Shown: piece after piece, positions 3-62,543 of the stretch
Layout: each line of letters opens with the position of its first letter
How positions within the stretch are numbered: the first letter of the stretch is position 1
Assembly (NCBI GenBank): GCA_963840495.1
Contig: CAWIZN010000033.1
Location: 12,049 to 76,048 of the forward strand
DNA: 64,000 nt
Source of the DNA: an uncultured Candidatus Rokubacteria bacterium
GTDB taxonomy: Bacteria; Methylomirabilota; Methylomirabilia; Rokubacteriales; CSP1-6
Reading direction: 5' to 3'
Translations under genes and position numbers: made by a program
The notes under the pieces: generated by a model
Told to the model about the DNA's origin: nothing
What the model saw: the letters and a program-made list of their open reading frames with translations, nothing else
The model's database searches: none

Positions 3-248
3 ATGTATGCCTACGGGCCCGACAGGGCTCGAGCGGAGGAACGCATGGCCCGAACCGCCGGCCTCAAGAGGAAATCCTTCTTCGTCGAAGAGCGCACGCT
101 CAAGCGCGCCAAGAAGGCGCTAGGTGTGCCCACGGACGCCGAGGTGGTCCGTCTGTCCCTCGAGCGTGCGGCCGAGATGGAAGAGTTCTGGCGCTTCATG
201 CAGCAGAGCCGCCGCATTCTCAAGCCCGGAAGCATCAAGAGCCCGTAG
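3..248 (+). CDS. Type II antitoxin, VapB/ribbon-helix-helix-like, 81 aa. Start may instead be the ATG at 45.
   Basis: Small basic ORF (..KRKSFFVEERTLKRAKKALGVPTDAEVVRLSLERAA..). Its stop overlaps the GTG start of the downstream PIN-domain gene, the classic toxin-antitoxin layout. Confidence 0.5.
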   Translation: MYAYGPDRARAEERMARTAGLKRKSFFVEERTLKRAKKALGVPTDAEVVRLSLERAAEMEEFWRFMQQSRRILKPGSIKSP

Positions 249-249
249 A

Positions 250-663
250 GTGCCCTGGGCCATCATCGACAGCAGCGTCTACATCGGCCACTGGGAGCGC
301 GGGGCCCACCAGCGAGCGCTGGACGACGTCCGCAGAGCATTCATCGTCCGGCATTCCGCCGTCGTCCTGTCCGAGCTCCGGCGGGGCGCCCGGACGCGAG
401 AGGCCGGACGGCTCGTGGATGCGCTGTTCCGGCTCGCCCGCGTGCAATGGGAGCCGACGGCGGCCGACTGGTGGCAAGCCGGACGGCTCATACGTGTGAT
501 CGGAGACGCTCGCGGCTGGGATCGCGGCAAGCGGCGGGACTTCCAGAACGATGCGTTGATCGGCTTGACCGCGGTGCGCCACGGGGCGACGGTGGTCACG
601 GCGAACCACGCCGATTTCGAGCTCCTGGCTCGCGAGATCCCGCTGTCGCTGTTCCCGGTGTAG
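250..663 (+). CDS. vapC: PIN-domain ribonuclease toxin VapC
   Basis: GTG at 250 in the frame of ORF 124..663. N-terminal IIDSSVYI with conserved acidic residues, plus a C-terminal ..TVVTANHADFELLA.. PIN signature. Coupled to the upstream antitoxin. Confidence 0.6.
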   Translation: MPWAIIDSSVYIGHWERGAHQRALDDVRRAFIVRHSAVVLSELRRGARTREAGRLVDALFRLARVQWEPTAADWWQAGRLIRVIGDARGWDRGKRRDFQNDALIGLTAVRHGATVVTANHADFELLAREIPLSLFPV

Positions 664-2271: not shown

Positions 2272-2277
2272 CAGAAG

Positions 2278-2445
2278 CTCGCAGGATGCTCAAAAAGGTC
2301 CAGATGCGAGGCGGCGCCTCGAGGCGCCGCCTCGCAGAGGCGTCCATGTCTAGCGTCTCCGACGGCTCCTAGAGCACGAGTGGCACGGCCGCCGGGCGTC
2401 GTATCGACTCCGGCAGATGCGGCCTTTTCAGCATCCACGCTGAGG
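2278..2445. mobile_element. MITE-like element copy A. TIR consensus is CTCGCAGGATGCTCAAAAAGGTCCAGATGCGAGG.
   Basis: The 5' end ctcgcaggatgctcaaaaaggtccagatgcgagg and the reverse-complemented 3' end (..ccggcagatgcggccttttcagcatccacgctgagg) form imperfect ~30-bp terminal inverted repeats. The same termini recur at five other loci in this window. Confidence 0.6.
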
Positions 2446-2452
2446 AGAGACC

Positions 2453-4165
2453 ATGGTCACGCTCGAATTCCATGACCCGTCCGGCCGGCTCGAGGCGAGG
2501 CAGCCGCACGCGCCACGACTCGCCTCGCTCGAGGGCAAGCGCATCGGCTTCGTCAGCAATGAGCAGTGGCAGGCCTATCGCATGCTCCCGCTCCTCAAGA
2601 CGCTGCTCGAGCGCGATTTCGCCGGGATCGAGGTGCTGCCGATCGACGCCTTCCCGCAGGGCAATGCCCTGATCGGCACCGAGGAGACCGCGGCGCAGGT
2701 CAAGCAGAGCGGCGTCGACGCCGTCATCATCGGCAACGCTGCCTGAGGGTCTTGCGCAACCGCGTGCGGCCGGGCGGCCGCCAGGCTGGAAGCACAAGGC
2801 ATTCCGACGGTGACGCTGACGCGCGCGGATTTCGTGGGCGTCATGAAGAATGCCATCTCCGGCCTCGGGCTCGGGCCCGACGCCGCCATGGTGACCTTCC
2901 CGATCGAGCTGTTCCTGCCCGGCAGCGACATCGCGCCGGTCGAGGCGCGCAAGCGCGAGTTCTACGACGGGCTGACGCGCTGGACGTCGGACCTGGCCGG
3001 CGACGCGGGCGGGGAGATCCCCATGGTCTCCGTCCGCGGGGCGACGTTCGAGGACGCCCTGGTCAGGGCGAACAATCTGATGATCGCGAACCTGTGGGGC
3101 GACGGCCTGCCCCTGTGGCCGGCCACGCGCGAGCGCGTGGAGTGGATCCTGCGGGGCAGCACGCTGCCGCGCGCGCACGTGCTCGGCACGTTTCCGCCGC
3201 GCGGCGGGGTCGCCACCGTCGAGATCTGCGCCATCGCGCTCGCGATGGCGGGCGGGCGGCCCGAGTACCTGCCGGTGCTGGTGGCCGCGGTGGACGCCTT
3301 CCTCGATCCCGACTCCGGCAGCGAGCAGCTCCAGGCGGCATCGGGCAGCGCCTTTCCGGTGGTCATCGTCAATGGGCCGATCGGCCCGCAGATCCGGCTC
3401 AACTCCGGCTTCGGCTGCCTCGGTCCCGACCCACAGCGCCCCGCCGGGGCGAGCATCGGGCGCGCCCTCCGGCTCATGCAGCAGAATGTCGGCGGCGCGC
3501 GGCCGGGCGTCGGCACCATGGCCAACTACGGCGGCCTGCGCTACACGAACGTCGTCTTCGCCGAGGACGAGGACAACCTGCCCGCGGGCTGGCCGGCCCA
3601 CGGGGCGGACCGGCACGGCTTCGCACCAGGGCGCAGCTCGATCTCGCTCGCCTTCGCGAACGGCGCCACCAATATCCGGCGGCGCGGCGCCAAGAAGGAA
3701 ACGCCCGAGGAGGACGCGCTCCAGGGCATGCACCGCATGGCGGACTTCATGCGCGTGCCCAATCTGGCGGGGCTCGCCGGCTACGAGCGCGGCACGCCCG
3801 GCATCCTGATGATTCCCGGCGTGGTGGCCCAGACCATGGCCGGCCTCGGCTGGACCAAGCGCTCGATGCGCGAGTTCCTCTGGGAGCACTCGCGGATCCC
3901 GGCCGAGCACCTGCGCCGCGCCGGCGGCCACGCGTGGATCGAGATCGACGCGAGTGCCGTGACACGGCAGAGCCTGGCACTGGACCCGTGGCCGATCACG
4001 GCCTCGCCCGACAACATCGTCCTGATCGTGGCCGGCGGCGGCCATCCGACCAATAGCTACTGGCTACAGGGGTATAGCCCGGGTGTCGTCGGCCGCGAGA
4101 TCCACGTGCCGGAAGACTTCGGGCACCTGCTCGACGAGGCGGCGCGCGATCTGGGTGGGGGCTGA
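2453..4165 (+). CDS. UGSC-motif (seleno)protein. The in-frame TGA at 2744..2746 is read as selenocysteine and joins ORFs 2453..2746 and 2810..4165 (570 aa).
   Basis: Both ORFs are in the same frame and separated only by TGA. Translating through gives ..DAVIIGNAA-U-GSCATACGRAAARLEAQGIPTVTLTRADF.., a U-G-S-C motif. ATG 2453 follows GAGGAGAGA. A GC hairpin lies 20 nt after the UGA. Confidence 0.55.
2766..2781 (+). promoter_or_regulatory. Putative bacterial SECIS-like hairpin (gcggcc-gggc-ggccgc) downstream of UGA 2744..2746
   Basis: Perfect 6-bp GC stem with a 4-nt loop starting 20 nt 3' of the in-frame UGA. Flanking bases (cgcgt/cagg) could extend the structure. Confidence 0.35.
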
Positions 4166-13928: not shown

Positions 13929-16734
13929 CTACGTCACCAGCCGGAGGCCCTCGGGCAGGCTCTCGCCGAACGCGCGCACGCGCTCGACCTCGGAGGGCGG
14001 CCGGACCTCGATGAGTCGGATGGGCGGCTCGGGCAAGACCCCGGACGCCACCACTCGGTCGTAGACCTCGCGACCGAGGTCTTCGTCGACGTCCAGGGCC
14101 GGGTCGCCGGTGCGCGCGGCGATCTGCACGGCCGTTGCCGCGATGTCCGGGGACAGCGGGCCGAGATCGAGCAATGCGCGCACCCACTGCCCGGCCGTCT
14201 GCGCGTCCACGACGGTATTGAGCGGCCCGTACAGCGGCAGGCGGGCGCCCGTTCGCCCGAGCGCCCACAGCAAGCTGCCGTTGCGCGGCTCCCGCTTCAG
14301 CCGAGCCAGCAGCTCCGCGCCGAGCGCTCGCCGATGCGCCGCGGGCAGATCCTCCAGGCTCGCGAGCAGGCGCAGCGCTTCGCGCTCGACCTGGGGCGGC
14401 AGGCGCTTCGGTCGCTTGCCCGCCGCGGCCACGACAACGGGCGCCTGGCGATCGTAGATCTCGTGCTGCTGCCCGGGCGTGAGTCCGCCGGCGATGCGCT
14501 GCCACAGGACCAGCCACTCCGCCTGACACTGGACGTCTGCGGCAAACGCGGGCCCGGCGAGATACAGCCGGCGCGCATGCGTCATCCGCCAGTCGTCGAG
14601 CGTGGCGCCGAAGCCCGGGCGCAGGCAGTAGCCGAGGAGGTTCAGCCAGCGGGCCTCGTGCCGGGGCGATCGCCGCCGGCCATCCGGCACCTCGAGCAGG
14701 GCGTCGGCGATGGGCCGCAGCGCGCCGAGCGGCCAGGCCTGCCTGGCGAACCCGAGACGCTCCTCGAGGTGGGCCATGAGGGTATCCGGCGTGGCCGCGG
14801 CATTGGTGCTCCCGCCGAACAGCGCCTTCACGAGGGCGACCGCGCCGGCGACCGCGCCGGGATCGATCACCGCGGAGGTCGGCTCGGGCTCCTCTCCGCC
14901 GCGCCCGCGGCCCGCGCCCGCCGCCCGAAGCTGGAACTGCAGGCGCCAGCGGTGTCCGGTCGCGGGGGCGATGATCCACAGCTCGAGCGTGCCGAGCTCG
15001 GTGTAGACCACCTCGAGCACGACGCGGACGTCGGCGTGCCGGGAGCGCTGGCCGAAGCGCAGCTCGGTCACGAGCGGCGCGTGCCGGTGCGCGGAAGGAT
15101 CCGCGGTGGAGACGTCGCCGAACTCGGCGTGGCTCGTCAGGCTGGACACGAGGGTGAACGACAGCGGGCGGTTGGCCCTCACCACGAACTCCCGCGTCTC
15201 GAGCCGTCGCGTGGTGCCCTCCGGCGTGCCGCGCGGCAGCACGCAGACGACCTGTCGCTCGCCGTCACCCGCCCCGCCGCCGAGCGACAGAAAGCACGCG
15301 CGGGGAGTGCCGCCGCCGATGCGCAGCCCGAGGCCTCGCCGCACCAGGCCGGAGTACGCCGCGCCCTCGGCCACCGCCACCGCCGGCGCCGCGTTCGCGA
15401 GCACGCGCAGGGGCCACGGGCGGCCGTCGGCCTCGGCGAACCAGCCGGACACGACCTGGGCGAGACGCGTCTGCGTCTCTTCCGGCGTGAAGAAGCCCCC
15501 GTTGAGCAGCAGCACATCCGGGCGCACCGCGCCTCGATCGCCGGCCGCGGACAGGAACCTGGCGAGATGCCGGGTGATCGCCGGGTCGGCCGCGAACGGC
15601 AGACCGAGCTCTCGGAGCCCGCTCCGCCGCCCCGCGTCCGGCTCGGCGTCGATGGCGCAGGCCGGCAGGAAGCCGTCGAGCAGGAGCCGCACGACGTCCT
15701 CGCGCGCGAGGTCCACGGACAGGGCGCCGCCGACGACGGCGCCGCCGCTTCCGAGGAGCGACACCGTCGCCCGATCCACCGGCGGGGGCCCGAGCAGGCG
15801 CTCCTTCACCGCCGCGCACTGACGCCGGAGCGCCTGCTGCTGGCGCAGCGTCAGCCGCGCCTGGCCGAGCCGCTCCTGCACCAGCGCGGTCAGCGCGAGA
15901 TCGACGTTGTCGCCGCCCAGCAGCAGGTGCTCGCCGACCGCGATGCGCTCGAGCACCGGGCCGTCCGCCTCGGTGCGCACCGATACCAGGGTGAAGTCGG
16001 TGGTGCCGCCGCCGACGTCGCAGATCAGCACGCGGTCGCCGTCGCGGAGCGACGCGGCGAGCGACCCGCGGTTGGCCGCGATCCAGGCGTAGAGCGCGGC
16101 CGTCGGCTCCTCGACCATGGTCAGCTGCTCGATGCCGGCCGCCCGCGCCGCCTCGATCGTCAGCTCGCGGGCTTCCTCGTCGAACGATGCGGGCACCGTG
16201 AGCGTGACGGCCTGCCGCTCGAACGCCAGCGGCCCGGCAGCGACGCGGTGGTTCCAGGCGTCGCGCACGTGCCGGAGCACGGCGGCCGAGGCATCGACCG
16301 GCGACAGCGCGAAGCCGCCCGCCTCGCCTCCCCAGGGCAACACGCGGTGCGCGCCGATCGACGGCGTCGCTGCACAGCCACGACTTCGCCGATGACACGA
16401 GGCGGCCCGGCACGAGCGCCCCGTGGTCGCGCGCCCAGGCGCCGACGACGTGGGATGGGTGCTCCGCCCACGGCAGGTCGAACCGGCCCGAATCGCGCTC
16501 CTCGGGGCGGAGCAGATAGAGAAAGGACGGCAGCGTCGCCATCGGCGCCACTTCGCCCTCGGCCACGAGCTGGGGGACCTCGAACACGCGGACGCGCGGC
16601 GTGCCCGCGTCGGTCAGCTCGCGCAGGTCAGCAAAGGCGACGGCCGAGTTGGTGGTGCCCAGGTCGATGCCGATGACGAAGCGCGGCGTGCCGGGCTCGC
16701 CCTCGGCCAGCGGATCCGACATGGCGCCGGGCAC
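13929..16734 (-). CDS. Atypical Hsp70-family protein (~935 aa; NBD plus long C-terminal helical extension), frameshifted near 16345-16380
   Basis: N-terminal ..FVIGIDLGTTNSAVAFA.. (ORF 15265..16734). It continues in another frame (ORF 13929..16343) with ..VLICDVGGGTTDFTLVSV..IAVGEHLLLGGDNVDLAL.. One base change in gatcggcgcgcaCcgcgtgttg restores the frame. Confidence 0.65.
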
Positions 16735-16803
16735 CGATCAGGGCGCGGTGGCCCGCCGCATGCGGCGCTCGCCGAGGTCCCTCACCGCGCCACCTCGATC
16801 CGC

Positions 16804-18654
16804 TCAGCCGCGCGCCGCGTCCCGCTGCCGGATGTTCCACTCGAGCTTCCAGCGATGCGAGTCGTCGCGCGCGACGAGCCACAGCTCGATCGTGCCCACC
16901 TCGGTCACGCGGCTCTCGAGCCTCACGGGCAAGACGGTGTGCTCGCGTCCCGGCAGGCGTCAGCGTGACCTCGAGCGGATGGAGCTCGTCGATCTCGGTG
17001 CCCCAGTCCTCCACGAGGGTGCCGACGGTGTCCTGCTTGCGGGCCGCCGATGACAGGAACCGGAACTCCGCCGCCTCGCCGACCACGAGGCCGAACTCGC
17101 GCCCGGAGATCGTCGGCCTCGGTCCCCTCCTCCATGCCGAACGGCACGACGCACAGCGCCTTGATCGGGGCCTCGAGACCGGGCACCGCGGGCATGGCGC
17201 TCTCGATGCCGATGTAGTACGTGCTCGGGGCGCCGCCGCGGATGCGCACGCCGCGCCCGCGGCGGGTCAGCCCGTAGTAGGCGGCGCCGCGCGCGACCGC
17301 GTGGTCGAGGTCGGGCGCCTCGAGCACGCCGGCCTCGCCGAGCGGCGGGAACCCGTCGGCGACCAGCCACGCGTCGAGCGCGCCGCGCACCCGATCGCGC
17401 AGCGACGCCGCCTTCATGACGCCGCCGTTGAAGAGCACGTGGGTCGGCGCGGCCAGCCCGCTCGCGCCGCGGCGCAGCCGGATGCCCTGCTCGACGCTGT
17501 CCGCGGCCAGGTCGGCGAGGAACCGGGCGAGGTGCTTGGTGATCGCGGCATCGGCGGCATAGGGCAGGCCCAGCTCCTGCAGGCCGACCCGGCGCGTCCG
17601 CTGGGGCCGCGCATCGGCGCCGACCATCGGGAAGAAGCCCTCGACCAGCGTGTCGACCAGCTCGTCGCGCGTGAGCTCGGTGGAGATCGAGCCGCCGACC
17701 AGGCGCGTGCCCCGGCCCAGCAAGGTGACGGGCTGGGCATCGACGCGAGCGTCCTCGAAGAGCCGCTCCTTGGCGACCCGGCACTGGTGCCAGAGCTGCT
17801 GGAGCTGCCACGAGTCGATGCGGTGGCCGGCGCCCTCGAGCTTCTGCTGCAGCCGTCGCGCGAGCGCCAGGTCCATGTTGTCGCCGCCCAGCAGGATGTG
17901 CTCGCCCACGGCGACGCGGCGCAGCGCGAGCGACGCCGTCCTCCTCGCCGACCGCGATGAGGCTGAAGTCGGTGGTGCCGCCGCCCACGTCGCACACCAG
18001 CACCAGGTCGCCCACCTTCACGCGCTCGCGCCAGGCGTCGCCCTGCGCGGCGAGCCATGCGTAGAACGCCGCCTGGGGCTCTTCGAGGAGGCGCACGCCC
18101 GGCAAGCCGGCCTCCGCCGCCGCCTGGAGCGTCAGCTCCCGCGCCTCCTCGTCGAACGAGGCGGGCACGGTCACGAGCACCTCCTGGTCGCCGAGCGCCG
18201 CGCCGTCGGCGCCGCGCGCGTGCTGCCACGCGCGCGCCAGGTGCGCCAGGTACCGCGCCGACGCGAACACGGGCGACACGCGGCGAACGTCCTCCGGCGC
18301 CTGCCACGGCAGGATGTCGGCGGTCCGGTCCACCCCCGCGTGCGAGAGCCACGACTTCGCCGACGCCACCAGGCGGGCCGGATTCTCGGCGCCGCGCTTG
18401 CGCGCGAGCTCGCCGATCACCGCGTCGGCCTCGCCCTCCCACGGCAGCGCGATCGCCCCGGGCGCGAAATCCGCCGGACCCGGCAGGAAGAGGAACGACG
18501 GCAGGAGCGTGGGCGCGGCGACCTCGCCGGGGTTGACGAGCTGCGCGATGCCCTGCACGGCCGGCGAGGCCTCGTCGCCCGCGCTCGTGTCGACGTCCGC
18601 GAGCGCGCAGTTCGTCGTGCCGAGGTCGATGCCGATGATGAACCGGGCGTCCAT
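16804..18654 (-). CDS. Hsp70-family protein, paralog #2 (~615 aa), with at least three single-base frameshifts
   Basis: ORF 16960..18654 N-terminal FIIGIDLGTTNCALA..VCDVGGGTTDFSLIAVGEEDG. It shifts into the ORF 16923..17909 frame (..VAVGEHILLGGDNMDLALA..) and shifts twice more near 17085 and 16960 before ending ..WKLEWNIRQRDAARG*. Confidence 0.6.
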
Positions 18655-28363: not shown

Positions 28364-30033
28364 ATGACCACGGCCGATCTCGTCCTCACCGGCGGCAAGA
28401 TCCTCACGCTCGATCGACACTCGCGCATCGTGCAGGCGCTCGCCGTCCGCGGCGGGCGCATCGCCGCGCTCGGCCGGGACATCCGAGATCGCGGGCCTCA
28501 TCGGTCCCGACACGCGCCGCCTGGACCTCCGCGGCCGCCTCGCCGTGCCCGGGCTCATCGACGGCCATGCCCACATGGACCGCGAGGGCCTCAAGCTCCG
28601 CTGGCCATCACTCGCCGCCGCGCGGTCCATCGGCGATATCTTGCAGATCGTCGAGGCCGAGGTGCGCCGCACGCCGCATGGCGAGTGGATCGTGACCATG
28701 CCCATCGGCGAGCCCCCGATGTACGAGGGCGTGCCGGGGAATCTCGCGGAGAATCGCTGGCCGACGCGCCACGACCTGGACCGGGTCGCGCCCGACCATC
28801 CCGTCTACATCCGCGCCATCTGGGGGCACTGGCGCAATACCCTGCCCCTGGTCTCCATCGCCAATACGAAGGCGCTCGAGCGCGCGGGCATCGGGCGCGA
28901 CACGCGGCCGCCCGCGCCGTCCATCGAGATCGAGCGCGACGCTCTAGGGCGACCCGACCGGCGTCCTCGTCGAGCAGACGTACAAGCCGCTGGTCGAGCA
29001 CACGCTGATGGCGGTGGCGCCGCGCTTCACCCTGGAGGATCGCGTGGCCGGCCTCGCCGAGTCCATGCGCATCTACAATCGCTGCGGCACCACCAGCGTC
29101 TTCGAGGGCCACGGCATCTCGAACGAGGTCCTCGCGGCGTACCAGGCCCTGCGCGAGCGGGGCCGGCCGAGCGTGCGGGCGCATCTGCTGTGGAGCCCGG
29201 CCTGGCCGTCCGCCGATGCCGCGCCCGTGCTCGACCTCGTGCGGAGCTGGGGCGCCTGGCTGAGCCGCCGCGGGCTCGGCGACGAGTACCTGCGCGTGGG
29301 CGGGCTCTACACGGAATCGGACTACTCGGAGGAGAACCGCCTGCGCGCGGCCACCGCGCCCCAGACGGGCTGGGCCGGCTTCTCCTACCAGGCGGCCCTG
29401 CCCGAGGACGTCATGGTCGAGATGATGATCGAGGCCGCGCGGAGCCACATCCGCGTCGGCAGCTTCACGCCGAATATCCTCGACCTCTACGAGCGCGTGA
29501 ACCGCGCCGTGCCCATCGCCGACCGGCGGTGGGTCATCGAGCATATCGGCGTCTACGGCCCGGATGAGATCCGCCGCATCCGCGACCTCGGCCTCGTCCT
29601 GACCGCGTATACCGGCCGGTACATCTGGAAGGACGGCGCCATGCTCGCGCGCCAGCTCGGGCCCGCGGGCGCCTCGCGCATCGCCCCGCTGCGCGCGCTG
29701 CTCGAGGCCGGCGTCCACGTCGCGCTGTCGACGGACAATGTGCCGCCCTCGCTCTTCGACGCGATCCACCACGCCGTGACGCGCAAGCCGCGCGGCGCCG
29801 CCGAGCCCGTCGGGCCCGACCAGTGCCTGTCGCGCGAGGAAGCGCTCGCGTGCGCCTCGCGCGAGGGCGCCTATCTCACCTTCGAAGAGGACGACAAGGG
29901 CACCCTCGAGCTCGGCAAGCTCGCCGACATCGCCGTCCTCGACCAGGATGCGCTCACGGCGCCCGAGGACGCGCTGCCCGACATCCGCGCCGACCTGGTG
30001 ATCGTCGGCGGCGAGGTCGTCCTCGCTACCTGA
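28364..30033 (+). CDS. Amidohydrolase (YtcJ-like metal-dependent hydrolase) with two single-base frameshifts near 28490 and 28950
   Basis: Three consecutive ORFs (28364.., 28545.., 29008..) jointly give DLVLTGGKILTLD..AVRGGRIAALG / ..PGLIDGHAHMDREG.. / ..GTLELGKLADIAVLD.. Removing one G from ctaGGGcgac restores ..ERDALGDPTGVLVEQTYKPLVEHTLMAVAP.. Confidence 0.6.
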
Positions 30034-30268
30034 TCACCCCGGCCCATCGCGGCAGGGACAGCGTGATGCCGGGGAAGACGATGAGCCCGGAAGGGGCCCG
30101 CGAACAGAGCGAGACACAAAGCCCGTTCTATGACAGCGGCAGTCAGCAAAGGCCAGGGATGATCGTCGCATTGCGCTCCAGCAATTCCGGGCGCATCCTA
30201 GCCGGACGGCAAAGGCCCGACCGACCCGCGACGTTGGTGACCGCGCGCCGGCGTCGAGGAGTTCCATC

Positions 30269-30535: not shown

Positions 30536-31100
30536 TCGAGCCGATCCTACCCTCGCTCCGGATGCCACGGCTCAAGGTCGACGCGACACTCAGGTCCTGG
30601 TGGCTGGTGCGCTACAACATGCAGGGCGTCGTCCGCGCGCAGGAGAGCAGCCTGACGCGGGACCGCCAGTCGGGGCGCATTCCTCCGGCTGCTGGAGAGC
30701 GTCGCGCCGAAGGCCGCGGCGAAGCTGTGGGGCCAGGGCGCCGACGCCGAGGCGGCGGCGGCGGCAATCGGCCCCGGACACCCTCACCGATGATGTCGCC
30801 GTGCCTCGACGAGGGCTCCACCACTCCCGTGCAGATGACCGTCACGCGCACGCTCGGGAGCGTGCTGGCGCGGGCCTCCGCCATCAACGAAAAGATGAAT
30901 TCGGGATGCAGGAACGCGGTGAGCCCTGGACGACCATGCCCGCGGCCCGCGTCGCCGAATGGCTGGACCCCGTCGGACGATACACCTTCAATCTGACGCG
31001 GTCGGCGGTCGGGGCCGACGGTGCCGGCCGAAATACCGACGCCAGAGGCACCGCCATGAGCTCAGGAATGGTTGATTCGTCGGCGGCGAGGTCGTCCTCG

Positions 31101-32384
31101 CTACCTGATCGCCCCGGCCCAGCGCGGCAGGAACAGCGTGAGCCCGGGGAAGACGATGAGCAGGAGCAGTCCCGCGAGCAGCGCGAGCAGATAGGGCCAG
31201 TAGGCCTTGAAGTGCTGGCCCACCGAGATATTGGCGAAGCGCAGCGCCATCAGGAGGCCGACGCCGATCGGCGGCAGGAAGAGCCCGATCCCCACCGCCG
31301 CGGTCAGGACGATATTGAAGTGCACCGGGTGGATGCCCACCTCCTTGGCGATGGGAAACACCACGGGCACGAGCACCACCGCGGCGGGTAGCCCTTCCAG
31401 CACCATTCCGAAGAGGATCACGATGAGGCTCACGGCGACCAGGAAGAGCCACGGCGTGGACGCCAGCGGCCCGAGCACCTCGCCCAGCATCCGCGGCACG
31501 CCGAGCATGCCCATGAGGAACTGGTAGACGCTGGCGACGGCGAGGAGGAAGATGACCGCCGCGGTGAGGAGCGCGCTCTCGTAGATGAGCTTCAGCATCT
31601 CGCGCCACGTCACGTTCTTGTAGTAGAAGAACGCCGCGGCCATGGCATAGGCGGCCACCAGCGCGCCCGCCTCGGTGGCGGTGAACACGCCGAAGAAGAA
31701 CCCCAGCACGATGATGACGGGGACGACCAGCGGCACGAGCGATGCCCTTCCTGCTTCGATGAAGCGCGGCCAGGTCGGAGGCTCGTCCTTGGGCCAACTG
31801 AGGCGATGCGCCTGCAGGAGGATCACCGCCATCAGGCAGAGGGCGCTCACCGCCGCGGGGATGAAGCCGCCGAGGAAGATCCCGACCACGGAGGTGTCGG
31901 TGATCTGGCCGAGCACGATCATGAAGATGGCGGGCGGCACCAGGATGCCCATGGCGGAGGCCGAGGCCACGAGCGAGACGGCGTGCTCCGGCTTGTAGCC
32001 GGCGCGCAGCATGGGCGGCGTCAGCATGGAGCCGATGGCCGACACGTCCGCGATGGTCGAGCCCGAGATGCCCGAGAAGAAGTACTCGGCCAGCACCACC
32101 GACATGCCGAGCCCGCCCCGCACCCAGCCCACGAGCACGCGCGCCAGATTGACGAGCGCATACGACATCCCACAGCGCTCCATGAGATTGCCGGCGAACA
32201 CGAAGGTCGGGATGGCCAGGAGCACCCAGTGCTGGGTCCCCGCCACCAGGCTCGACGGCAGCTTCTCCAGCGAGAAGTTGCCGATGAGGAGCCCGACGAA
32301 TCCCGAGAGGCCGAGGGCGAAGACGATGGGCATCGACAAGGCGGCGAGCACGACGAACGACAGCCCGACCGCAGCGAACAGCAC
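31101..32384 (-). CDS. dctM: TRAP transporter large permease subunit
   Basis: 427 aa with 12+ TM segments and a typical DctM sequence. 4-nt overlap with dctQ. Confidence 0.75.
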   Translation of the reverse strand: MLFAAVGLSFVVLAALSMPIVFALGLSGFVGLLIGNFSLEKLPSSLVAGTQHWVLLAIPTFVFAGNLMERCGMSYALVNLARVLVGWVRGGLGMSVVLAEYFFSGISGSTIADVSAIGSMLTPPMLRAGYKPEHAVSLVASASAMGILVPPAIFMIVLGQITDTSVVGIFLGGFIPAAVSALCLMAVILLQAHRLSWPKDEPPTWPRFIEAGRASLVPLVVPVIIVLGFFFGVFTATEAGALVAAYAMAAAFFYYKNVTWREMLKLIYESALLTAAVIFLLAVASVYQFLMGMLGVPRMLGEVLGPLASTPWLFLVAVSLIVILFGMVLEGLPAAVVLVPVVFPIAKEVGIHPVHFNIVLTAAVGIGLFLPPIGVGLLMALRFANISVGQHFKAYWPYLLALLAGLLLLIVFPGLTLFLPRWAGAIR

Positions 32385-32912: not shown

Positions 32913-32985
32913 GGCCCGCGGATCGTAGACCGCCCCGCGATCGGAAGTCAAGCGCCGCCCTCGCTCGCTAGCAGGATACGGAAAA

Positions 32986-33162
32986 CTCGCAGGATGCTCA
33001 AAAAGGTCCAGATGCGAGGCGGCGCCCGACGGCCGCACGCGAGGCGTAGTCTCGGCTGCTCGAGTCGCGGATCTGGATCGCCGGGCATCGTGGCTCGCCA
33101 GCGTGAGCGTGCGGCCGCGGGACGCCGAACCGCAGATGGGCCTTTTTCAGCATCCTGCGAGG
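32986..33162. mobile_element. MITE-like element copy B in the dctQ/dctP divergent intergenic region
   Basis: 5' ctcgcaggatgctcaaaaaggtccagatgcgagg. The 3' ..cgcagatgggcctttttcagcatcctgcgagg is its near-perfect reverse complement. Confidence 0.65.
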
Positions 33163-33262
33163 CTTGACTTTGCCGGGCGGATCATCGCCTATAGAGACGC
33201 CCGGGCCGGGGGCGCCGCCGGCCGCTGCCACGCGATGACGCGTCGCTACCAAAGGAGGCCCT

Positions 33263-40899: not shown

Positions 40900-41829
40900 A
40901 TGGAAGACATCTACTGCTTCGCCGGCAATTCGCTCGACCGGGTCAGCGCCCGCCGGAATGACGACAAGTGGATCGCCACGCTGCTGGCGGACCCCGGGAC
41001 GCGGCTCCTCGCCCTGCGCGACCTGAAGCCGCTCGTGCGCGGCCCGGAAAAGCCGGCGCTCGATTGGCAGCCGGCGGCCTCGTGGCGCGGGCAGATCGAG
41101 GCGGGCGCCATCCTGATCCTGCTCGGCATCGACGACGACGGGCGCGCGCACTTCGCGATCGACGCGAGCGGCGCCAGCACCGCGCCGGACATCGACACCG
41201 AGCTGATCGACGTGCGCACCCTCGCCCCGACGATCCCGACCGGCGAGGCGGCGATCCTCGCCGAGGCCCGCTCGCTGATCGACTGGCACACGCGGCATCG
41301 CTTCTGCGCCCAGTGCGGATCGCCGACGCGAGTGGCGTCGGCCGGCTGGGTGCGGCGCTGCCCCGATTGCCGCGCGTCGCACTTCCCGCGCACCGATCCG
41401 GTCGTCATCATGCTCGCGGTCCGCGGTGACCGCGCCCTGCTCGGCCGCAACCGCCAGCGCCCGGGCGGCCGCTTCTCCTGCCTCGCGGGCTTCGTGGAGC
41501 CGGGCGAGACGCTGGAAGAGGCCGTGCGCCGCGAGGTCCACGAGGAGGCCGGCATCCGCTGCGGGCGGGTGCGGTACCTGGCCGCGCAGCCCTGGCCGTT
41601 CCCGTCGAGCCTCATGATGGGGTTCCTCGCCGAGGCGCTGACCGAGGAGATCACCGTCGACCCCGAGGAGATCGCCGAGGCGCGCTGGTTCCACAGGGAC
41701 GAGATGCGCGAGATGGTGGCACGCGCCGCGACGGGCCCCGACGATCCGACGAAGGTGTCGCTGCCGGCGCCGATCGCCATCGCCCACCACATCTGCCGCC
41801 GCTGGGCCACCGGGCTCGACAACATCTGA
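40900..41829 (+). CDS. nudC: NAD+ diphosphatase (NADH pyrophosphatase), Nudix family with zinc ribbon
   Basis: CAQCGSPT..CPDC zinc ribbon, Nudix box GFVEPGETLEEAVRREVHEEAGI, and the NudC-specific SQPWPFPSS motif. TATAAT at 40884..40889 lies upstream. Confidence 0.75.
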   Translation: MEDIYCFAGNSLDRVSARRNDDKWIATLLADPGTRLLALRDLKPLVRGPEKPALDWQPAASWRGQIEAGAILILLGIDDDGRAHFAIDASGASTAPDIDTELIDVRTLAPTIPTGEAAILAEARSLIDWHTRHRFCAQCGSPTRVASAGWVRRCPDCRASHFPRTDPVVIMLAVRGDRALLGRNRQRPGGRFSCLAGFVEPGETLEEAVRREVHEEAGIRCGRVRYLAAQPWPFPSSLMMGFLAEALTEEITVDPEEIAEARWFHRDEMREMVARAATGPDDPTKVSLPAPIAIAHHICRRWATGLDNI

Positions 41830-41841
41830 TCCCGGCCGGCT

Positions 41842-42003
41842 AGCAGCCTGTCGGAGAAACGGTGCCCTCGGCTAGCAGGCGATGAGAAGGGTCCAGATGC
41901 GAGGCGGCGCCCGAAGGCTGCCGTCGAGGCGTAGTCTCTGTACGTTGAGCCGGCTGCTCGAGGGCGCCAACGAAGCAGATGGGCCCTTATCATCGCTCTA
42001 GGC
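41842..42003. mobile_element. MITE-like element copy C between the nudC and amidase 3' ends
   Basis: ..agcagcctgtcggagaaac..ggctagcaggcgatgagaagggtccagatgcgagg .. cagatgggcccttatcatcgctctagg. The termini are inverted repeats (agcgatgataagggcccatctgc vs ggcgatgagaagggtccagatgc). Confidence 0.55.
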
Positions 42004-42019
42004 GCGGCGGCCGGCGCTG

Positions 42020-43420
42020 CTACGATACGGGCGGGTGCCGGTGGTGCCAGTCGGTGAGGGCCTGGTAGGCGCGGGCCGCGGCGAGGATGGTGTTCTCCTC
42101 CCAGGCGCGGCCCATCAACTGCAGGCTCGTGGGCAGGCCGCGGTCGCCGAAGCCATTGGGCACGATCACCGCGGGGAGGCCGGCGCCATTGCCGACGGCG
42201 CCCATGACGTCGGGGGCCGATCCGCCGAGCGCGCTCCTGAAGTCGCGGTCGAGCGGCGGCGCGACGGTGGGGCGCCCGGGCGCCACCAGCGCGTCGAAGC
42301 GCCTGAGCAGGGCATCGGCCTCGCGCGCCATCACACGGCGCAGCCGCAGCGCCTTCATGTAGTCCTTCGCGAGGATGGCGTCGCGCGCGTACGCGGTGTA
42401 GTGATCCTCCGGCGCCGTCAGCTCCGCGATCGCGCCGCTCTCGATCAGCTCCTCGAAGGCGCTCGCCGCCTCGACGTGCAGGATGGTGCGCGTGATGATC
42501 TCCCAGGGCAGATCCGGCAGGTGGACCTCCTCGACCGTGCCGATCCGGCGAAGCACCTCGAGCGAGGCCTCGAAATTGGCGCGCACCGCCTCGTCGCACC
42601 CCGCACTCACGTTTTCGAGCACGCCGAAGCGAAAGCGCTGGGGCGCGGCGTCCCCGCCCGCGTAGCGAAACGGCCGCGCCGTCGTGGTGGGATCGGCCGC
42701 GTCGGGACCGGCGATGGCGTCGAGCACGAGGCCGCAATCATCCGCGGTGAGGGCGATCGGGCCCAGCTTGTCGAGCGTCCAGCACAGCGCCATGGCGCCG
42801 TGGCGGCTGACGCGGCCGTAGCTCGGCCGGAGGCCGGCGATGCCGCAATAGCCCGCGGGCCCGAGAATCGACCCCCACGTTTCCGAGCCGATGGCGAACG
42901 GCACGAGACCCGCCGAGACGGCCGAGCCCGAGCCACTCGACGAGCCCCCGCTCCAGGCGTCGAGATTCCACGGATTGATGCCGGGTCCGGTGAACGAGGC
43001 ATGAGGCTGGCGATAGCCCATGCCGCCCGCCAGCTCCACCATGGCCAGCTTGGCGCAGAGGACGGCGCCCGCCGCCTCGAGCTTCCTGATGACGGTGGCG
43101 TCCTCGTCGAAGCGCTGGTCCTTCAGCGGCGCCGCGCCCCAGGAGGTCGGGATGCCTTCGGACGTCGCGAGCAGGTCCTTGGCGCCATACGGAATGCCGT
43201 GGAGCGGGCCGAAGTCGCGGCCGGCCGCAAGCTCCCGCTCGGCGCGCCGCGCCTGGTCCATCGCGCGCTCGCGCGTGAGCGTGACGACGGCATTGTAGCG
43301 GGGGCCGAGCGTCTCGAGCCGATGGAGGAACGTCTCGGCGAGCTGGACCGGCGACACCGCGCCCGCGCGGATCATTCCCCCGAGCTGGCGAAGCGGGACG
43401 AAGACCGGCTCGTCGCTCAC
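42020..43420 (-). CDS. Amidase-signature family amidase (GatA/AtzE-like)
   Basis: GTG start (cac 43418..43420). GGSSSGSG amidase-signature motif with the K..S..S catalytic region. 466 aa. Confidence 0.7.
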   Translation of the reverse strand: MSDEPVFVPLRQLGGMIRAGAVSPVQLAETFLHRLETLGPRYNAVVTLTRERAMDQARRAERELAAGRDFGPLHGIPYGAKDLLATSEGIPTSWGAAPLKDQRFDEDATVIRKLEAAGAVLCAKLAMVELAGGMGYRQPHASFTGPGINPWNLDAWSGGSSSGSGSAVSAGLVPFAIGSETWGSILGPAGYCGIAGLRPSYGRVSRHGAMALCWTLDKLGPIALTADDCGLVLDAIAGPDAADPTTTARPFRYAGGDAAPQRFRFGVLENVSAGCDEAVRANFEASLEVLRRIGTVEEVHLPDLPWEIITRTILHVEAASAFEELIESGAIAELTAPEDHYTAYARDAILAKDYMKALRLRRVMAREADALLRRFDALVAPGRPTVAPPLDRDFRSALGGSAPDVMGAVGNGAGLPAVIVPNGFGDRGLPTSLQLMGRAWEENTILAAARAYQALTDWHHRHPPVS

Positions 43421-43422
43421 GA

Positions 43423-43636
43423 GCAGCCTGTCGGAGAAACCCAGCTAGAGCGATGAGAAGGGTCCAGCTGCGAGGCGGCGCCCGATGGCCGCACGCGAGG
43501 CGTACTCGCGTAGGGGGAGTGCGGGGCCATGTCTGGGCCCCGCAGACGAAAGTTCGTCGGCCCGCTTGTCTCGCGCGTTACGTGGCACGGCGGCGAGGGA
43601 CGCCGTACCTCCGCAGATGGGCCCTTATCATCGCTC
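43423..43636. mobile_element. MITE-like element copy D (long subfamily) inserted between the small AtzG/GatC-like gene and the amidase gene
   Basis: gagcagcctgtcggagaaac..gagcgatgagaagggtccagctgcgagg ... cctccgcagatgggcccttatcatcgctc. It is a near-identical inverted copy of element E at 52771. Confidence 0.6.
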
Positions 43637-43880
43637 AGTCGGCCCGGAACGGGACGAAGGGCTGCATCGGCTCGTCGGAATTCGCGAGCTTCACGGCGCG
43701 CAGCGCGCGGGCACCGGTCACGACAGCCTCGATGCCCTTGCGCACGTCCTCGAGCTGCGCGGGTGTGAGGCGAGCGCCGTAGCGCTCGGCGACCATGGCG
43801 AAGAGGCGATCGACTTCGTTCGATCCGAGACCGGATTCTTCCATGCGCTGAGTGACTCGTCCTCGCTCGCAGCGGCACAT
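43635..43880 (-). CDS. Small GatC/AtzG-like (DUF4089-like) protein, 81 aa, likely partner of the downstream amidase
   Basis: ATG 43880 lies 7 nt after the ADH stop. ..LTPAQLEDVRKGIEAVVTGARALRAVKLANSDEPMQPFVPF.. fits the pattern of GatC-like helper subunits found with AtzE-type amidases. Family assignment is from memory. Confidence 0.4.
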   Translation of the reverse strand: MCRCERGRVTQRMEESGLGSNEVDRLFAMVAERYGARLTPAQLEDVRKGIEAVVTGARALRAVKLANSDEPMQPFVPFRAD

Positions 43881-43887
43881 GCGCGCC

Positions 43888-44913
43888 TCAGCCGAGGTCG
43901 ACCAGCACCTTCATCACGGGCCCGCCCGCGAGGGCTTCCTCCATGCCTTTCTGGAGATCCTCGAGCGGGATGCGGCGGCTCACGAGCGGACCGACGGGGA
44001 CGGCGCCCGTCGACGCCAGGCGGATGGCCTCCTCCCAGTCGGATCGCGCGTAGAGGCGGCTGCCGTGCATGGTGAGCTCACGGGCGAACATCGGATAGAG
44101 GTTCACGAGCATGGGCTCGGCGTGGATGGCCACGACGCTGATGGCGCCCCAGACACGCACCACCTCGGTGATGAGACGCACCGCCGCGGCATTGCCCGTC
44201 ACCTCGAACGCGACGTCGGCGCCGTCGCCGCCGGTCCAGTCCTCGACCGTGCGGACCACGTCCCGGCCGGCGGCCCCCGGATCGGGACGGAAGACCTCGA
44301 GCCCGAAGCCCTTCAGGAGATCGATGCGGAAGGGGTTGACCTCCAGCACCAGCACGCGGGCGCCGCGGTGGCGGGCGACGAGCGCGATGAGACAGCCGAT
44401 GGGGCCGCCGCCGAAGACGACGACAGCGTCGCCCGCCTTGACCTGCGCGCGCGTCACGTCGTGAGTGGCGATGGCAAGAGGCTCCATCAGCGCCGCGTGA
44501 TCGTCGCTGAGCGTGTCGGGCACCTTGATGAGCCGCGCCGTGGGCACCGTCCAGTACTCCTGCATGCCACCGGGGACATCCACGCCCAGGACCTTGAGCT
44601 GATAGCAGATGTAGTCAGCGCCCATCCGGCAGGCGCGGCACTGGCCGCAGACCCGGAGCGGCTCGACGACGACGCGATCCCCCGCGGCGAAGCCGCTGCC
44701 CGCCGGCGCCTCGGCAACCTCGGCGAAGGTTTCGTGACCGATGATCCCGCCCTTGGGCACCCGATGATCGAGATGGCCCTGGTAGATGTGCAGGTCCGTG
44801 CCGCAAATGCCCACGCGGCGGACGCGCAGCAGCGCCTCGCCGGCCTGGGCCGTGGGCATCGTGGCGGGGGCCGTCTTGAAGGTCTGGTTGCCGTGGTAGT
44901 AGGACGCTCGCAT
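43888..44913 (-). CDS. Zinc-binding dehydrogenase (threonine/sorbitol dehydrogenase-like MDR)
   Basis: GHETFAEV catalytic Zn site, structural Zn CGQCRACRMGADYIC, NAD-binding GGGPIGCL. 341 aa. Confidence 0.7.
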   Translation of the reverse strand: MRASYYHGNQTFKTAPATMPTAQAGEALLRVRRVGICGTDLHIYQGHLDHRVPKGGIIGHETFAEVAEAPAGSGFAAGDRVVVEPLRVCGQCRACRMGADYICYQLKVLGVDVPGGMQEYWTVPTARLIKVPDTLSDDHAALMEPLAIATHDVTRAQVKAGDAVVVFGGGPIGCLIALVARHRGARVLVLEVNPFRIDLLKGFGLEVFRPDPGAAGRDVVRTVEDWTGGDGADVAFEVTGNAAAVRLITEVVRVWGAISVVAIHAEPMLVNLYPMFARELTMHGSRLYARSDWEEAIRLASTGAVPVGPLVSRRIPLEDLQKGMEEALAGGPVMKVLVDLG

Positions 44914-45000
44914 GGTGCCTCTCCTCGACCGATGTCGCTGCCGTCAGTCCGCTCGAGGCCATGAGCGCATCACGGCGAGGCGCCGACTCGGATCAGCGCA

Positions 45001-46577: not shown

Positions 46578-46635
46578 GGGTGCAGTCCTCGGACCTCGGG
46601 CCGCGGGCGACGTGGCGATCGGCGCGAAGAAGCCC

Positions 46636-47628: not shown

Positions 47629-47969
47629 GACCGGCCCGTCACGATGGCTCGACAGGCCGGCTGCTCACGCAGAGGTCTTGCATCAAGAAGAGCGTTCGCA
47701 AAGCACAATAGGCATTACAAAACCAGTAGCGACTGATCCCCGCAACGTTTCTGAGCAGGCCCGATGATCTCATCGATTTACGCCTCGCGCCAGCTTTTCC
47801 ACCGATGCGCGCCCGGCACCATTCCTCATCCTCACCCGCCGCGATTGATGAAGTCCAGGCCAGCCGAGCGTCGCGGTTGCGGGCGAGCGGATCGCGGCCT
47901 ATCATCGCCGTGCGCGCTCGCAGCGCGCGATCCGGCGCCGCCGGCGCCACCCCTCACCACGGAGGACCC

Positions 47970-48773: not shown

Positions 48774-48776
48774 GGA

Positions 48777-50375: not shown

Positions 50376-50376
50376 G

Positions 50377-51141: not shown

Positions 51142-51162
51142 TCGCCGCATGAGGAGACCTCA

Positions 51163-51960: not shown

Positions 51961-51983
51961 GCGGCCAGACAGGAGATCACCCG

Positions 51984-52771: not shown

Positions 52772-52955
52772 AGCGATGATAAGGGCCCATCTGCGGAGGT
52801 ACGGCGCCCTCGACAGCCGGCCACGTAACGCGCGAGACAATCGGGCCGACGAACTTTCGTCTGCGGGGCCCAGACATGGCCCGCACTCCCCCTACGCGAG
52901 TACGCCTCGCGTGCTGCCATCGGGCGCCGCCTCGCAGCTGGACCCTTCTCCGCTC
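52771..52955. mobile_element. MITE-like element copy E (inverted orientation relative to D) between the enoyl-CoA hydratase and acyl-CoA dehydrogenase genes
   Basis: Begins gagcgatgataagggcccatctgcggagg and ends ..cctcgcagctggacccttctc. The internal segment is the reverse complement of element D's interior (gtaacgcgcgagacaatcgggccgacgaactttcgtctgcggggcccagacatggcc). Confidence 0.6.
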
Positions 52956-52975
52956 AGGCTCCTAGGAGAAGAGCC

Positions 52976-61675: not shown

Positions 61676-61990
61676 TCAGCCGGCGCGCCCGCTCGACGGA
61701 ACAGCGGGCGCGCCAGCCCTGAAGCGCGCCGCGCGGCGGCGCACCCACTCCCAGCCGCGGACCGCCAGCAATACCACCAGGATCCCGCGTAGTAGTACGG
61801 ATCGGGATTGGCCTTCTTCGCCAGCCAGAGGTAGTGCAGGACGGCGCAGACGCCGATCACGTAGGCCAGCCGGTGGAGACGCTGCCAGTTTCGGCCGCCG
61901 AGTCGCTTGATCGCGGCCGTGGTCGAGGTGGCGGCGAGCGGCAGCATGAGGATGAGCGCGGCGAGTCCTACCGTGAGAACCGGCAGGCGG
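61676..61990 (-). pseudogene. msrQ: MsrQ/YedZ-like (ferric-reductase-type heme b membrane subunit) C-terminal fragment, 5'-truncated at MITE F and frameshifted at a G-run
   Basis: ..LAALILMLPLAATSTTAAIKRLGGRNWQRLHRLAYVIGVCAVLHYLWLAKKANPDPYYYAG / ILVVLLAVRGWEWVRRR..* matches the last two TM helices of MsrQ. Upstream coding is replaced by MITE sequence. Confidence 0.45.
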
Positions 61991-62106
61991 CTCAGACGGG
62001 TCCAGCTGCGAGGCGGCGCCCGAAGGCAGCCGGCGAGGCGTAGTCGCTCTACGTTGAGCCGGCTGCCGAGGGCGCCGTACCTCCGCAGATGGGCCTTTTT
62101 CAGCCG
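61990..62106. mobile_element. MITE-like element copy F (short subfamily). Its 3' TIR contains the stop codon of the RDD gene.
   Basis: ..gacgggtccagctgcgaggcggcgcccgaaggc...gccgtacctccgcagatgggcctttttcagc. Near-identical to copy C's interior and copy B's 3' end. Confidence 0.55.
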
Positions 62107-62543
62107 CCCGCGCGGACGACCCGTGTCCCGGCGAGCCAGTCAGCGAGCCCTCGCCGCTCGCGCGTGACGAGCATGCCGAGGCCGGCGAGTCCGAGCGTCA
62201 CGATCGAGACGCAACCACCGAGGCACCGCGCGAGCGCGCGGCCATAGCCGGGCGCCCCGCCGTCGCGTCGCACCACCGCGATCCCCAGCGCCATGCGCCC
62301 CGGGGTCTGCCCGCAGCCGCCGACGAATGCGACGTGATACACGACGTGCAGGACGATGCCGAGTACCAGGATGGCCGCGAGCAGGAGCGCCGCGTCCCCG
62401 AGCTCGAGGGGCGAGGTACGGAAGCCCCATACGCCGACCACGATGCACATCGCGCTCCAGAGCCATACGAGCGCACCGATCGCCCCGTCGAGTGCGGCGG
62501 CGGCCCCACGGCGCCAGAAGCCCGCCGTCGTGAGGTCGGTCAC
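62100..62543 (-). CDS. RDD-family membrane protein
   Basis: GTG start gives VTDLTTAGFWRRGAAAALDGAIGALVWL.. with ..GQTPGRMALGIAVVRRDG.. and ..RGLADWLAGTRVV (the R-D-D region). The stop codon tca 62100..62102 lies within the MITE TIR. Confidence 0.55.
   Translation of the reverse strand: MTDLTTAGFWRRGAAAALDGAIGALVWLWSAMCIVVGVWGFRTSPLELGDAALLLAAILVLGIVLHVVYHVAFVGGCGQTPGRMALGIAVVRRDGGAPGYGRALARCLGGCVSIVTLGLAGLGMLVTRERRGLADWLAGTRVVRAGG

Follow-up and report, generated by a model that had tools for sequence, protein, structure and literature searches.

A palindromic, probably mobile repeat family of MITE-like character between the genes of Rokubacteria

What is the sequence that recurs between the genes of this Rokubacteria fragment, and is it a mobile DNA element or a structured RNA? 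In this study we analysed a 64-kb stretch of DNA (the window, by which the whole of the stretch is meant), for which a preliminary description had proposed six copies of a recently active, non-autonomous MITE-like transposon or, as an alternative, a family of structured repeat RNAs. The six copies lie where they had been placed, to within a few bases, and their limits were refined (Table 1). The count is exact. Matches to the 22-nt core GGTCCAG[A/C]TGCGAGGCGGCGCC number six, five on the plus strand and one on the minus strand, against 0.01 expected from dinucleotide-preserving shuffles, and each of the six copies also has the 3' motif GCAGATGGGCCYTTWTCA, for which chance alone would give 0.05. 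A profile HMM built from 67 copies of other genomes returned the same six copies and nothing else in the 64 kb, while a repeat finder grouped them independently (families D3, D4 and D16, inverted pairs I1-I9). The element measures 130-215 nt, within the limit of about 400 bp usual for MITEs, and has no transposase or other coding capacity. All six copies are intergenic, and at most a few terminal bases overlap a gene, at a stop codon.

The palindromic element is best read as a previously undescribed family of MITE-like repeats of the ERIC/Correia type, specific to Rokubacteria (Methylomirabilota). Searches of the literature on repeats or MITEs of Rokubacteria and Methylomirabilota returned nothing relevant, and the phylum is not mentioned in a large MITE survey (PMC11602168). 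With Rfam, the whole window gave no match at the gathering threshold, and copy F in E-value mode gave only chance models of the miRNA/snoRNA type (E 0.5-7, far under thresholds).

Table 1. Copies of the repeat in the window, their invariant cores and the parts of the canonical unit
Feature	Position	Strand	Description
Copy A	2272..2440	+	Long form, partly degenerate; interior rearranged, 3' core with 2 mismatches
5' core in copy A	2297..2318	+	Invariant 22-nt core GGTCCAG[A/C]TGCGAGGCGGCGCC
Copy B	32972..33158	+	5' partial arm (CAGGATACGGAAAAC), then hairpin; long form
Copy C	41844..41997	+	Partial arm 41844-41871, internal CTAG 41872-41875, short-form hairpin 41876-41997
Copy D	43424..43638	+	5' partial arm, CTAG (43445-43448), long-form hairpin
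Copy E	52772..52961	-	Inverse orientation of D; long form
Copy F	61982..62111	+	Short-form hairpin between two minus-strand genes
5' core in the other five copies	33005, 41890, 43461, 61999 (+); 52923-52944 (-)	+ / -	Invariant 22-nt core
Canonical unit, 5' half			C(T/G)AG, optional partial arm CAGG(A/C)TGC(T/G)GAAAAAC, outer arm GCAGGCTGCTCAAAAAGG, constant core GGTCCAGATGCGAGGCGGCGCCCGA, variable inner stem
Canonical unit, apex			Constant apical hairpin GAGGCGTAC-loop-GTACGTTGAG
Canonical unit, 3' half			Inner stem, GAGGGCGCCAACGAAGCAGATGGGCC, outer arm CCTTTTTCAGCAGCCTGC, then (C)TAG
Ends expected of an autonomous partner element			CTAG-CAGG(C/A)TGCTGAAAAAGG and its inverse

The anatomy of the element differs in part from the first proposal, which had assumed terminal inverted repeats of about 30 bp around unrelated interiors. 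The inverted ends are present, but the copies are imperfect palindromes over their full length, and each of them folds into one long interrupted hairpin (z from -4.8 to -10 against shuffles). The long 5' string thought to be common to the six copies occurs in A and B only; common to all is the subterminal core, and the outermost arms vary between copies, with the changes matched on both arms. The outer arm takes the form GCAGGCTGCTCAAAAAGG / CCTTTTTCAGCAGCCTGC or, in another subfamily, ..GAGAAGGG / CCCTTATC.., and the invariant core contains internal loops, among them CAGATG opposite CAGATG. On the 5' side, 39 of 98 copies (about 40%) carry the extra partial arm given in Table 1. The division into short (C, F) and long subfamilies stands, the long forms of the window being A, B, D and E, and E is indeed an inverted copy of D (92-99% identity over about 185 nt). 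Among 96 copies of other genomes the core-to-core distance peaks sharply at 95 nt (90-100 nt in 68 of them), with a second class at about 156 nt and rarer forms up to 221 nt. In the long forms, additional modules sit either at the apex or within the 5' half. Many MAGs share a 156-nt module; the one carried by A, D and E was met nowhere except in the window and in close relatives of it.

Conservation of the hairpin was examined on 57 short-form copies. Their consensus structure comprises 46 pairs with 98% of the cells paired, and changes on both sides occur at 24 of the 46. None of 500 shuffles matched any of the observed covariation measures, and in slid controls, with the partner moved by 1-3 columns, pairing was only 30-49%. 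The outer arms (helix 1), which are the terminal inverted repeats, pair in 95% of cells. A compensating change is visible even between genomes of 94% identity, at copy C, as GATG/CATC against GAGG/CCTC, and copy C of the related contig L099 carries a compensatory arm change. The fold is also asymmetric between strands: three pairs are fixed as G·U, the CAGATG/CAGATG loop forms tandem G·A pairs, and at variable pairs G·U was counted 50 times and A·C 8 times (nominal p 2e-8, which overstates the significance because the copies are related). Stability favours the forward strand over its complement in all 57 copies, the mean difference being 15 kcal/mol. We infer that the hairpin is maintained by selection and that it is selected in single-stranded form. 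Compensation could also come about without selection, through template-switch repair of quasi-palindromes, but such repair would not keep G·T pairs on one strand.

Presence of the element is not limited to the window. The exact core was found in at least 98 further 8-kb contig blocks from about 30 MAGs, nearly all labelled Rokubacteria, Rokuibacteriota or Methylomirabilota, so the search for copies elsewhere that the preliminary description had called for was amply answered. Groundwater, grassland and Danish soils are the sources of these MAGs, some of which were assembled from short reads and others from long reads. A few core-bearing MAGs are labelled Limnocylindria, Acidoferrum, Binatia or Actinomycetes; in a check that covered the Limnocylindria, Acidoferrum and Actinomycetes MAGs, the flanks were 72-95% identical to Rokubacteria MAGs or to the window, and these three labels are therefore probably wrong. 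Carrier genomes hold roughly one copy per 10-40 kb, and viral contigs gave no match. No copy was present in about 730 kb of 79 metagenome loci with amidase orthologues (72-83% aa identity), and C, D, E and F are all missing in L180/L181, which are syntenic with the window from 42 to 64 kb at about 78% nucleotide identity. Elsewhere copies are kept at orthologous sites even where flank identity between the genomes is as low as 64-90%. Several genes closely homologous to the flanking ones were met on contigs of 1.4-2.5 kb.

Comparison with close relatives, among them three contigs 93-97% identical to the window (L099, L179 and L076), showed that the genomic context of the copies is not fixed. 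The site of copy D is empty in L179 (94-97% nucleotide identity), where CTCACGAG is followed directly by TCGGCG and the stop of a small ORF overlaps the amidase start as GTGA. In the window the same place holds a 215-nt insert, consisting of partial arm and hairpin and bounded by AG..AG, and in L099 only the partial arm and outer stem are left, 152 nt of the centre being symmetrically gone. At the site of E, L179 has a 19-nt spacer and no element, in place of 190 nt bounded by TAG..TAG in the window, with 9 nt unaligned. Copy B is missing in five relatives (DctP 88-98% aa identity), in which the remainder of the regulatory spacer is conserved. Copy C has the same orientation in L099 as in the window; in L179 the CTAG flanks are the same, and the entire unit between them, asymmetric partial arm included, is turned round and contains another inner stem, which indicates a separate insertion or replacement and not descent. 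For the partly degenerate copy A, the 99%-identical relative L187 has an intact long-form orthologue with an interior of the D/E type, and a relative of the same gene order (upstream gene 84% aa identity) has a 13-nt spacer at this site. Between copy F and its orthologue in L076, the two arms, the inner stem and the 3' loop have all changed in concert, at several bases.

Similar events were noticed away from the window. L082 carries an extra copy with CGAG on both flanks where L056 and L054 have none, L024 and L003 are filled where L068 is empty, and L056 and L054 hold copies in opposite orientations at one site. At some orthologous sites one MAG has the short form and another the long form, and interior-deleted mini-hairpins occur in L011 and L082. 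The element is thus gained, lost, inverted or replaced between genomes of 93-98% identity, and its centre is lost by symmetric deletion, as in long palindromes. With sites B, D and E empty in relatives and C inverted, there is clear presence/absence polymorphism. The two findings named at the outset as refuting mobility, a fixed context with no such polymorphism and a lack of copies elsewhere in the genome, are both contradicted. Three of the six window copies lie exactly at synteny breakpoints.

The sequences at the borders of the copies point to a preferred target. The tetranucleotide CTAG is strongly avoided in the window (26 seen, 177 expected), and 8 of the 26 are in or at elements, which cover less than 2% of the sequence. 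Behind the 3' end, TA follows in 42 of 78 copies and TAG in 33 of 78; before the 5' partial arm, CTAG stands in 21 of 39 and TA in 28 of 39. The element inserts at C(T/G)AG, a rare tetranucleotide, or immediately beside it. When the flanks were inspected for target duplications, CTAG/TA was found strongly enriched, and lengths of 2, 3 or 4 bp are compatible with the data. The two sides differ by one base at B (CTAG against CGAG), D (CGAG against CTAG or CAG) and E, and both the empty site of D, CACGAGTCGG, and the CGAG flanks in L082 have GA and not TA. Non-coding character, inverted arms, C(T/G)AG/TA flanks and the occurrence of both orientations agree with the original view of a recently active MITE-like element.

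The same preference accounts for the position of the copies relative to genes. CTAG contains TAG on both strands, and in a genome of 70% GC C(T/G)AG is mostly a TAG stop, hence the copies abut stop codons and gene ends. The C(T/G)AG preference likewise explains that the 3' side of the element faces a gene end in 68 of 89 cases (68 against 21) and that 28 copies are in convergent and 6 in divergent contexts. Between tandem genes, 13 copies are sense and 22 antisense, D, E and F of the window being antisense. Orientation relative to GC skew is biased towards the C-rich strand (49 against 23 loci), a weak effect that is confounded with gene strand.

In the window, copy A occupies the space between the stop of the Amidohydro_2 gene (2269-2271) and the ATG of the UGSC selenoprotein gene (2453), in sense orientation. 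It had been credited with most of the GAGGAGAGA ribosome-binding site of the latter gene, a view that the data do not support: the conserved end of the element, ...CAGCATCC(ACGC), is reached at about 2440, and the GAGGAG ribosome-binding site is just outside. An SD-like GGAGG directly after the element end, before unrelated genes, was also seen in L187 and several other loci. Copy B, with CTAG on the left (32968-32971) and CGAG on the right, is located in the regulatory spacer of the divergent dctQ and dctP genes, and copy C, flanked by CTAG at 41840 and 41998, between convergent NUDIX and amidase genes. Copy D, as described at first, starts 3 nt from the amidase GTG; the empty allele reveals that it was inserted into the 4-nt GTGA overlap of the small ORF and the amidase start and split it, antisense to both, so that the stop of the small ORF is now in element sequence. 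Copy E lies between the TAG stop of the enoyl-CoA hydratase gene (52769-52771) and a CTAG (52962-52965), just before the ribosome-binding site and ATG of the acyl-CoA dehydrogenase gene. Its end at this ribosome-binding site had been located correctly; the site itself, GGAGAAGAG, is native, as the empty allele has GGAGAGGAG at equal distance from the ATG. The stop codon of the RDD gene is contained in copy F, as had been noted, and reads TCA at 62100-62102 in the 3' arm.

Taken together, the copies probably belong to a palindromic element of the ERIC/Correia type, broadly speaking a MITE, which is mobile but not autonomous. The transposase that moves it would act in trans from another place in the genome. 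Its flanks fit a 2-bp (T/G)A duplication with ends GCAGG...CCTGC, in the style of IS630/Tc1-mariner, or alternatively a 4-bp C(T/G)AG duplication with ends CAGG...CCTG, in the style of IS5; we favour a DDE enzyme of the kind found in IS630 or IS5, and a single-strand route by an HUH enzyme may be considered as well. The single-stranded form in which the hairpin is selected could be ssDNA during movement or replication, or RNA co-transcribed with neighbouring genes, in which case it may serve as a 3'-end or stability hairpin. Long forms arise as the apex accepts extra modules. For a simple MITE the element is atypical, since conservation is highest in the subterminal and not in the terminal parts and the outer arms vary with compensation. 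Subterminal conservation, compensated arms and persistence at orthologous sites with flanks of 64-90% identity point to structure as the object of selection, or to a single-strand mechanism, rather than to a DDE enzyme that simply recognises the ends. In view of the strong covariation and the strand-specific G·U bias, a structured repeat RNA, the alternative put forward at the outset, may be an added property of this mobile element.

A partner enzyme was searched for in several ways. Pfam revealed no transposase among about 40 ORFs of the window; the ORFs between neighbouring copies are all ordinary genes, with no transposase and no Y1/HUH gene near any copy, and the gene tables of L179-L181 list no transposase. 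An orphan terminal arm next to a long ORF was not found in 739 kb, where five weak arm matches were obtained, two of them mini-hairpins, i.e. interior-deleted copies. Neither the window nor fragments totalling about 1.5 Mb yielded an autonomous IS with the same ends. This lack is weak evidence, because MAG fragments are a poor place for IS copies, which are usually lost in assembly. Two extra segments of L076 (1.1 kb and 1.4 kb), considered as possible IS, contain ordinary genes of the MFS and molybdopterin-oxidoreductase types, and a 123-nt indel between L017 and L078 is unrelated to the element. An exact-protein look-up of the acyl-CoA dehydrogenase (ACAD) of the window gave no match. The identities of attC, retron msr/msd and ωRNA/HEARO were rejected, as the copies lack an integrase, RT or TnpB context and match nothing in Rfam.

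Other readings of the element deserve weighing against this one. An element of the REPIN/REP-like or PATE-like kind, moved as ssDNA by an HUH tyrosine transposase (RAYT or IS200/IS605 TnpA), seems to us quite unlikely. Such an enzyme would read the imperfect hairpin on one strand, cut beside a C[T/G]AG guide and insert without a true target duplication, which would suit a fold that is specific to one strand (G·T fixed at three pairs and, at variable pairs, counted 50 times against 8 for A·C, tandem G·A, a forward strand that is always the more stable one), as well as a tetranucleotide that stands at the left flank, recurs as the final bases of the element and is not always identical (D, B). 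A family spanning the whole lineage with no visible IS partner and the weak orientation bias are also in its favour, the latter being, however, confounded with gene strand. The usual REP/RAYT system was rejected on two grounds: the unit is one composite palindrome of 130 nt with three helices, and not a GTAG-headed REP hairpin of 20-40 nt or two same-strand end hairpins, and no Y1 transposase or other HUH gene is located between or beside the copies examined. Moreover, the same palindromic CTAG is usually present at both ends, as a duplication would give, and the extra copy of L082 has an identical CGAG on each side.

That the element is primarily a structured RNA, such as a 3'-UTR or intercistronic hairpin, a bidirectional terminator, an mRNA stabiliser or a small RNA gene, with mobility incidental, we consider very unlikely. 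Three strongly covarying helices and the invariant internal loops, the G·U bias, the enrichment at gene 3' ends and the maintenance of copies at orthologous sites with divergent flanks would all be expected of it, and in the A5/T5 subfamily the GC-rich stem lies between A5 and T5, as in bidirectional terminators. Against this, copies are missing, inverted or replaced in genomes of 93-98% identity and missing in syntenic relatives, and in tandem contexts the stable strand is more often antisense than sense (22 against 13, with D, E and F antisense), on which account a strand-fixed cis-RNA was rejected. A plain intrinsic terminator was likewise discarded: T5 follows the long stem only in the A5/T5 subfamily (A, B, F), the GAGAAG/CTTATC subfamily lacks a T-run, as do C, D and E, and a terminator/promoter scan of 41000-54000 found no terminator at these three copies and no promoter-like site in the region, although a simple scanner is unable to score an interrupted stem of 50 bp. 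Rfam, too, is silent. Chance likeness of GC-rich intergenic palindromes, or an artefact of assembly or binning, has only the GC content of the window (70%) to recommend it; with the exact core present six times against 0.01 expected, with occurrences in independent groundwater, grassland and Danish soil assemblies of both read types, and with covariation above all controls, we attach practically no weight to it.

A broader view, which we hold to be unlikely though worth stating, is that the element is a strand-specific structured nucleic acid with its fold under selection, either a hairpin-guided ssDNA mobile element of non-classical IS200/REP layout or a mobile RNA module recruited at gene ends. 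Were this true, the position of element edges at synteny breaks would make it a driver of rearrangement in a phylum of large genomes, and the RNA module could have, for example, a role in the formation or stability of transcript 3' ends.

Returning to the MITE-like reading, repeats of this class are characterised by terminal inverted repeats, target duplications, stable folds, location at gene 3' ends and comparisons of empty and filled sites (PMC3184786). ERIC, an imperfect palindrome of about 127 bp with TA at both termini, variants by internal insertion and sites filled or empty among relatives (PMC3184786), is the closest match. Both are whole-length palindromes of about 130 nt that are intergenic, often co-transcribed and found in either orientation, with longer variants produced by insertion at fixed internal points and with orthologous sites either filled or empty; the likeness is one of features, a sequence relationship not being expected, and the host phylum is different. 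The Rokubacteria element departs from ERIC in its C(T/G)AG flank, in the one-sided partial arm of about 40% of copies and in its quantified G·U strand asymmetry. To our knowledge, the classical ERIC family has no known transposase partner.

Correia elements (CREE/NEMIS) of Neisseria and RUP of Streptococcus pneumoniae measure 100-160 bp, have inverted ends and tens to hundreds of copies, fold as long hairpins in mRNA and were inferred to be mobile from differences between close strains (PMC3184786). They resemble our element in size, inverted ends, dispersal of copies and hairpin; yet Correia elements have conserved ends with promoter and IHF motifs, whereas here the termini are variable and compensated, the invariant core is subterminal and no promoter-like motifs were found. 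Insertion of Correia and RUP elements duplicates TA, and RUP is linked to IS630-Spn1. The IS630/Tc1-mariner and IS5 families are candidate parents by virtue of targets centred on CTAG/TA and a possible duplication of 2 or 4 bp, although D was inserted at CGAG, which has no TA, and no transposase gene with these ends was found. The terminal CAGG presumably resembles mariner and Tc1 ends, and we take the arms GCAGGCCGCCGATAAGGGCCC and CAGGCTGCTCAAAAAGG to resemble the Himar1 ITR ACAGGTTGGATGATAAGTCCCC and the Tc1 end CAGTGCTGGCCAAAAAG; these likenesses serve as leads only. With REPIN/REP-RAYT and bcr1 the element shares dispersed hairpin repeats inherited with the lineage and a compensated fold. 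Recognition in REP-RAYT systems is strand-specific; a GTAG-headed REP unit of 20-40 nt is nevertheless absent from the Rokubacteria element, and no RAYT was seen near its copies. In bcr1 of Bacillus cereus compensatory base changes keep the fold (PMC3184786), and its 5-bp direct repeats are a difference from the element described here.

Rokubacteria are an uncultured phylum of soil and groundwater, for which no repeat family was described in the literature searched. Such an abundant repeat explains breaks of contigs and is therefore of relevance for assembly and binning, and it provides a lineage marker together with polymorphic sites for strain typing. Annotation is affected as well, since some gene ends and starts are partly derived from the element, as seen in the RDD stop, the stop of the small ORF that precedes the amidase gene and the operon junctions split by D and E. 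Given the copies located at synteny breakpoints, three of six, the family probably contributes to rearrangement. Its strand-asymmetric covariation makes it a convenient case for distinguishing selection on ssDNA from selection on RNA in palindromic MITEs. Current concepts are left unchanged by these results, which extend a known class of repeats to a new phylum.

In MAGs labelled Limnocylindria, Acidoferrum and Actinomycetes the element was found at loci L015, L019, L026, L061 and L065 (SMAG_U14396), L007, L018 and L056 (SMAG_U12481) and L076 (MFD02159.bin.1.72). The sequences flanking these copies match either Rokubacteria MAGs or the window at 72-95% identity, and for this reason the labels look wrong.

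Features of the window, with public metagenome or MAG loci (L-numbers) used for comparison
Feature	Position	Strand	Remark
PIN-domain ORF	124-663	+	left edge of the window
Synteny break at copy A	2440/2441		vs L187; different downstream gene after A
UGSC-family ORF with in-frame continuation	2453-4165	+	
Two neighbouring Hsp70-like paralogues	13929-18654	-	
85-nt direct repeat	30002-30086 and 31077-31161		94% identical
Divergent dctQ/dctP spacer	32940-33240		compared with L182-L186
Synteny break at copy C	41844		vs L099; different upstream sequence before C
Octapeptide-repeat gene, second paralogue	~54216-54650	-	secreted protein, nearly all tandem octapeptides
Octapeptide-repeat gene, larger	56977-58188	-	secreted protein, nearly all tandem octapeptides
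DNA repeats of octapeptide genes	54223-54771 and 56984-57676		
Synteny break at copy F	61978		vs L076; 1.4-kb gene pair before F in L076, missing in window

Repeat families with a spacing of ~1972 nt are explained by the adjacent Hsp70-like paralogues, the first of which carries DUF3731 at its C-terminus ('DnaK-related protein'). The larger octapeptide-repeat protein contains QSPRSQDI ~35 times, encoded by 24-nt DNA repeats; where the window has two paralogues, the close relative L179 has a single gene, whose 401-aa product gave no match in a Pfam search. The PIN-domain ORF is possibly the toxin of a toxin-antitoxin pair. The UGSC-family ORF, which follows copy A, has a TGA stop at 2744-2746 and is open again in the same frame at 2810-4165; in line with what the preliminary description assumed, it is probably a selenocysteine read-through protein.

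The dctQ/dctP spacer of the window and L182-L186 has a conserved TATAGA box and conserved boxes in inverted arrangement, AGTCAAG ... CTTGACT, and copy B occupies the sole variable stretch between these motifs; its insertion may therefore have been tolerated because the conserved motifs were spared. One copy of the 85-nt direct repeat spans the dctM stop, and the repeat may be what is left of a duplication of the 3' end of dctM; the ORFs between its two copies had no match in Pfam.

When the window was compared with 93-99% identical relatives, an element edge was the exact synteny breakpoint three times, at copies A, C and F; the gene pair preceding F in L076 is of the molybdopterin oxidoreductase type. 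Element copies may serve as recombination points.
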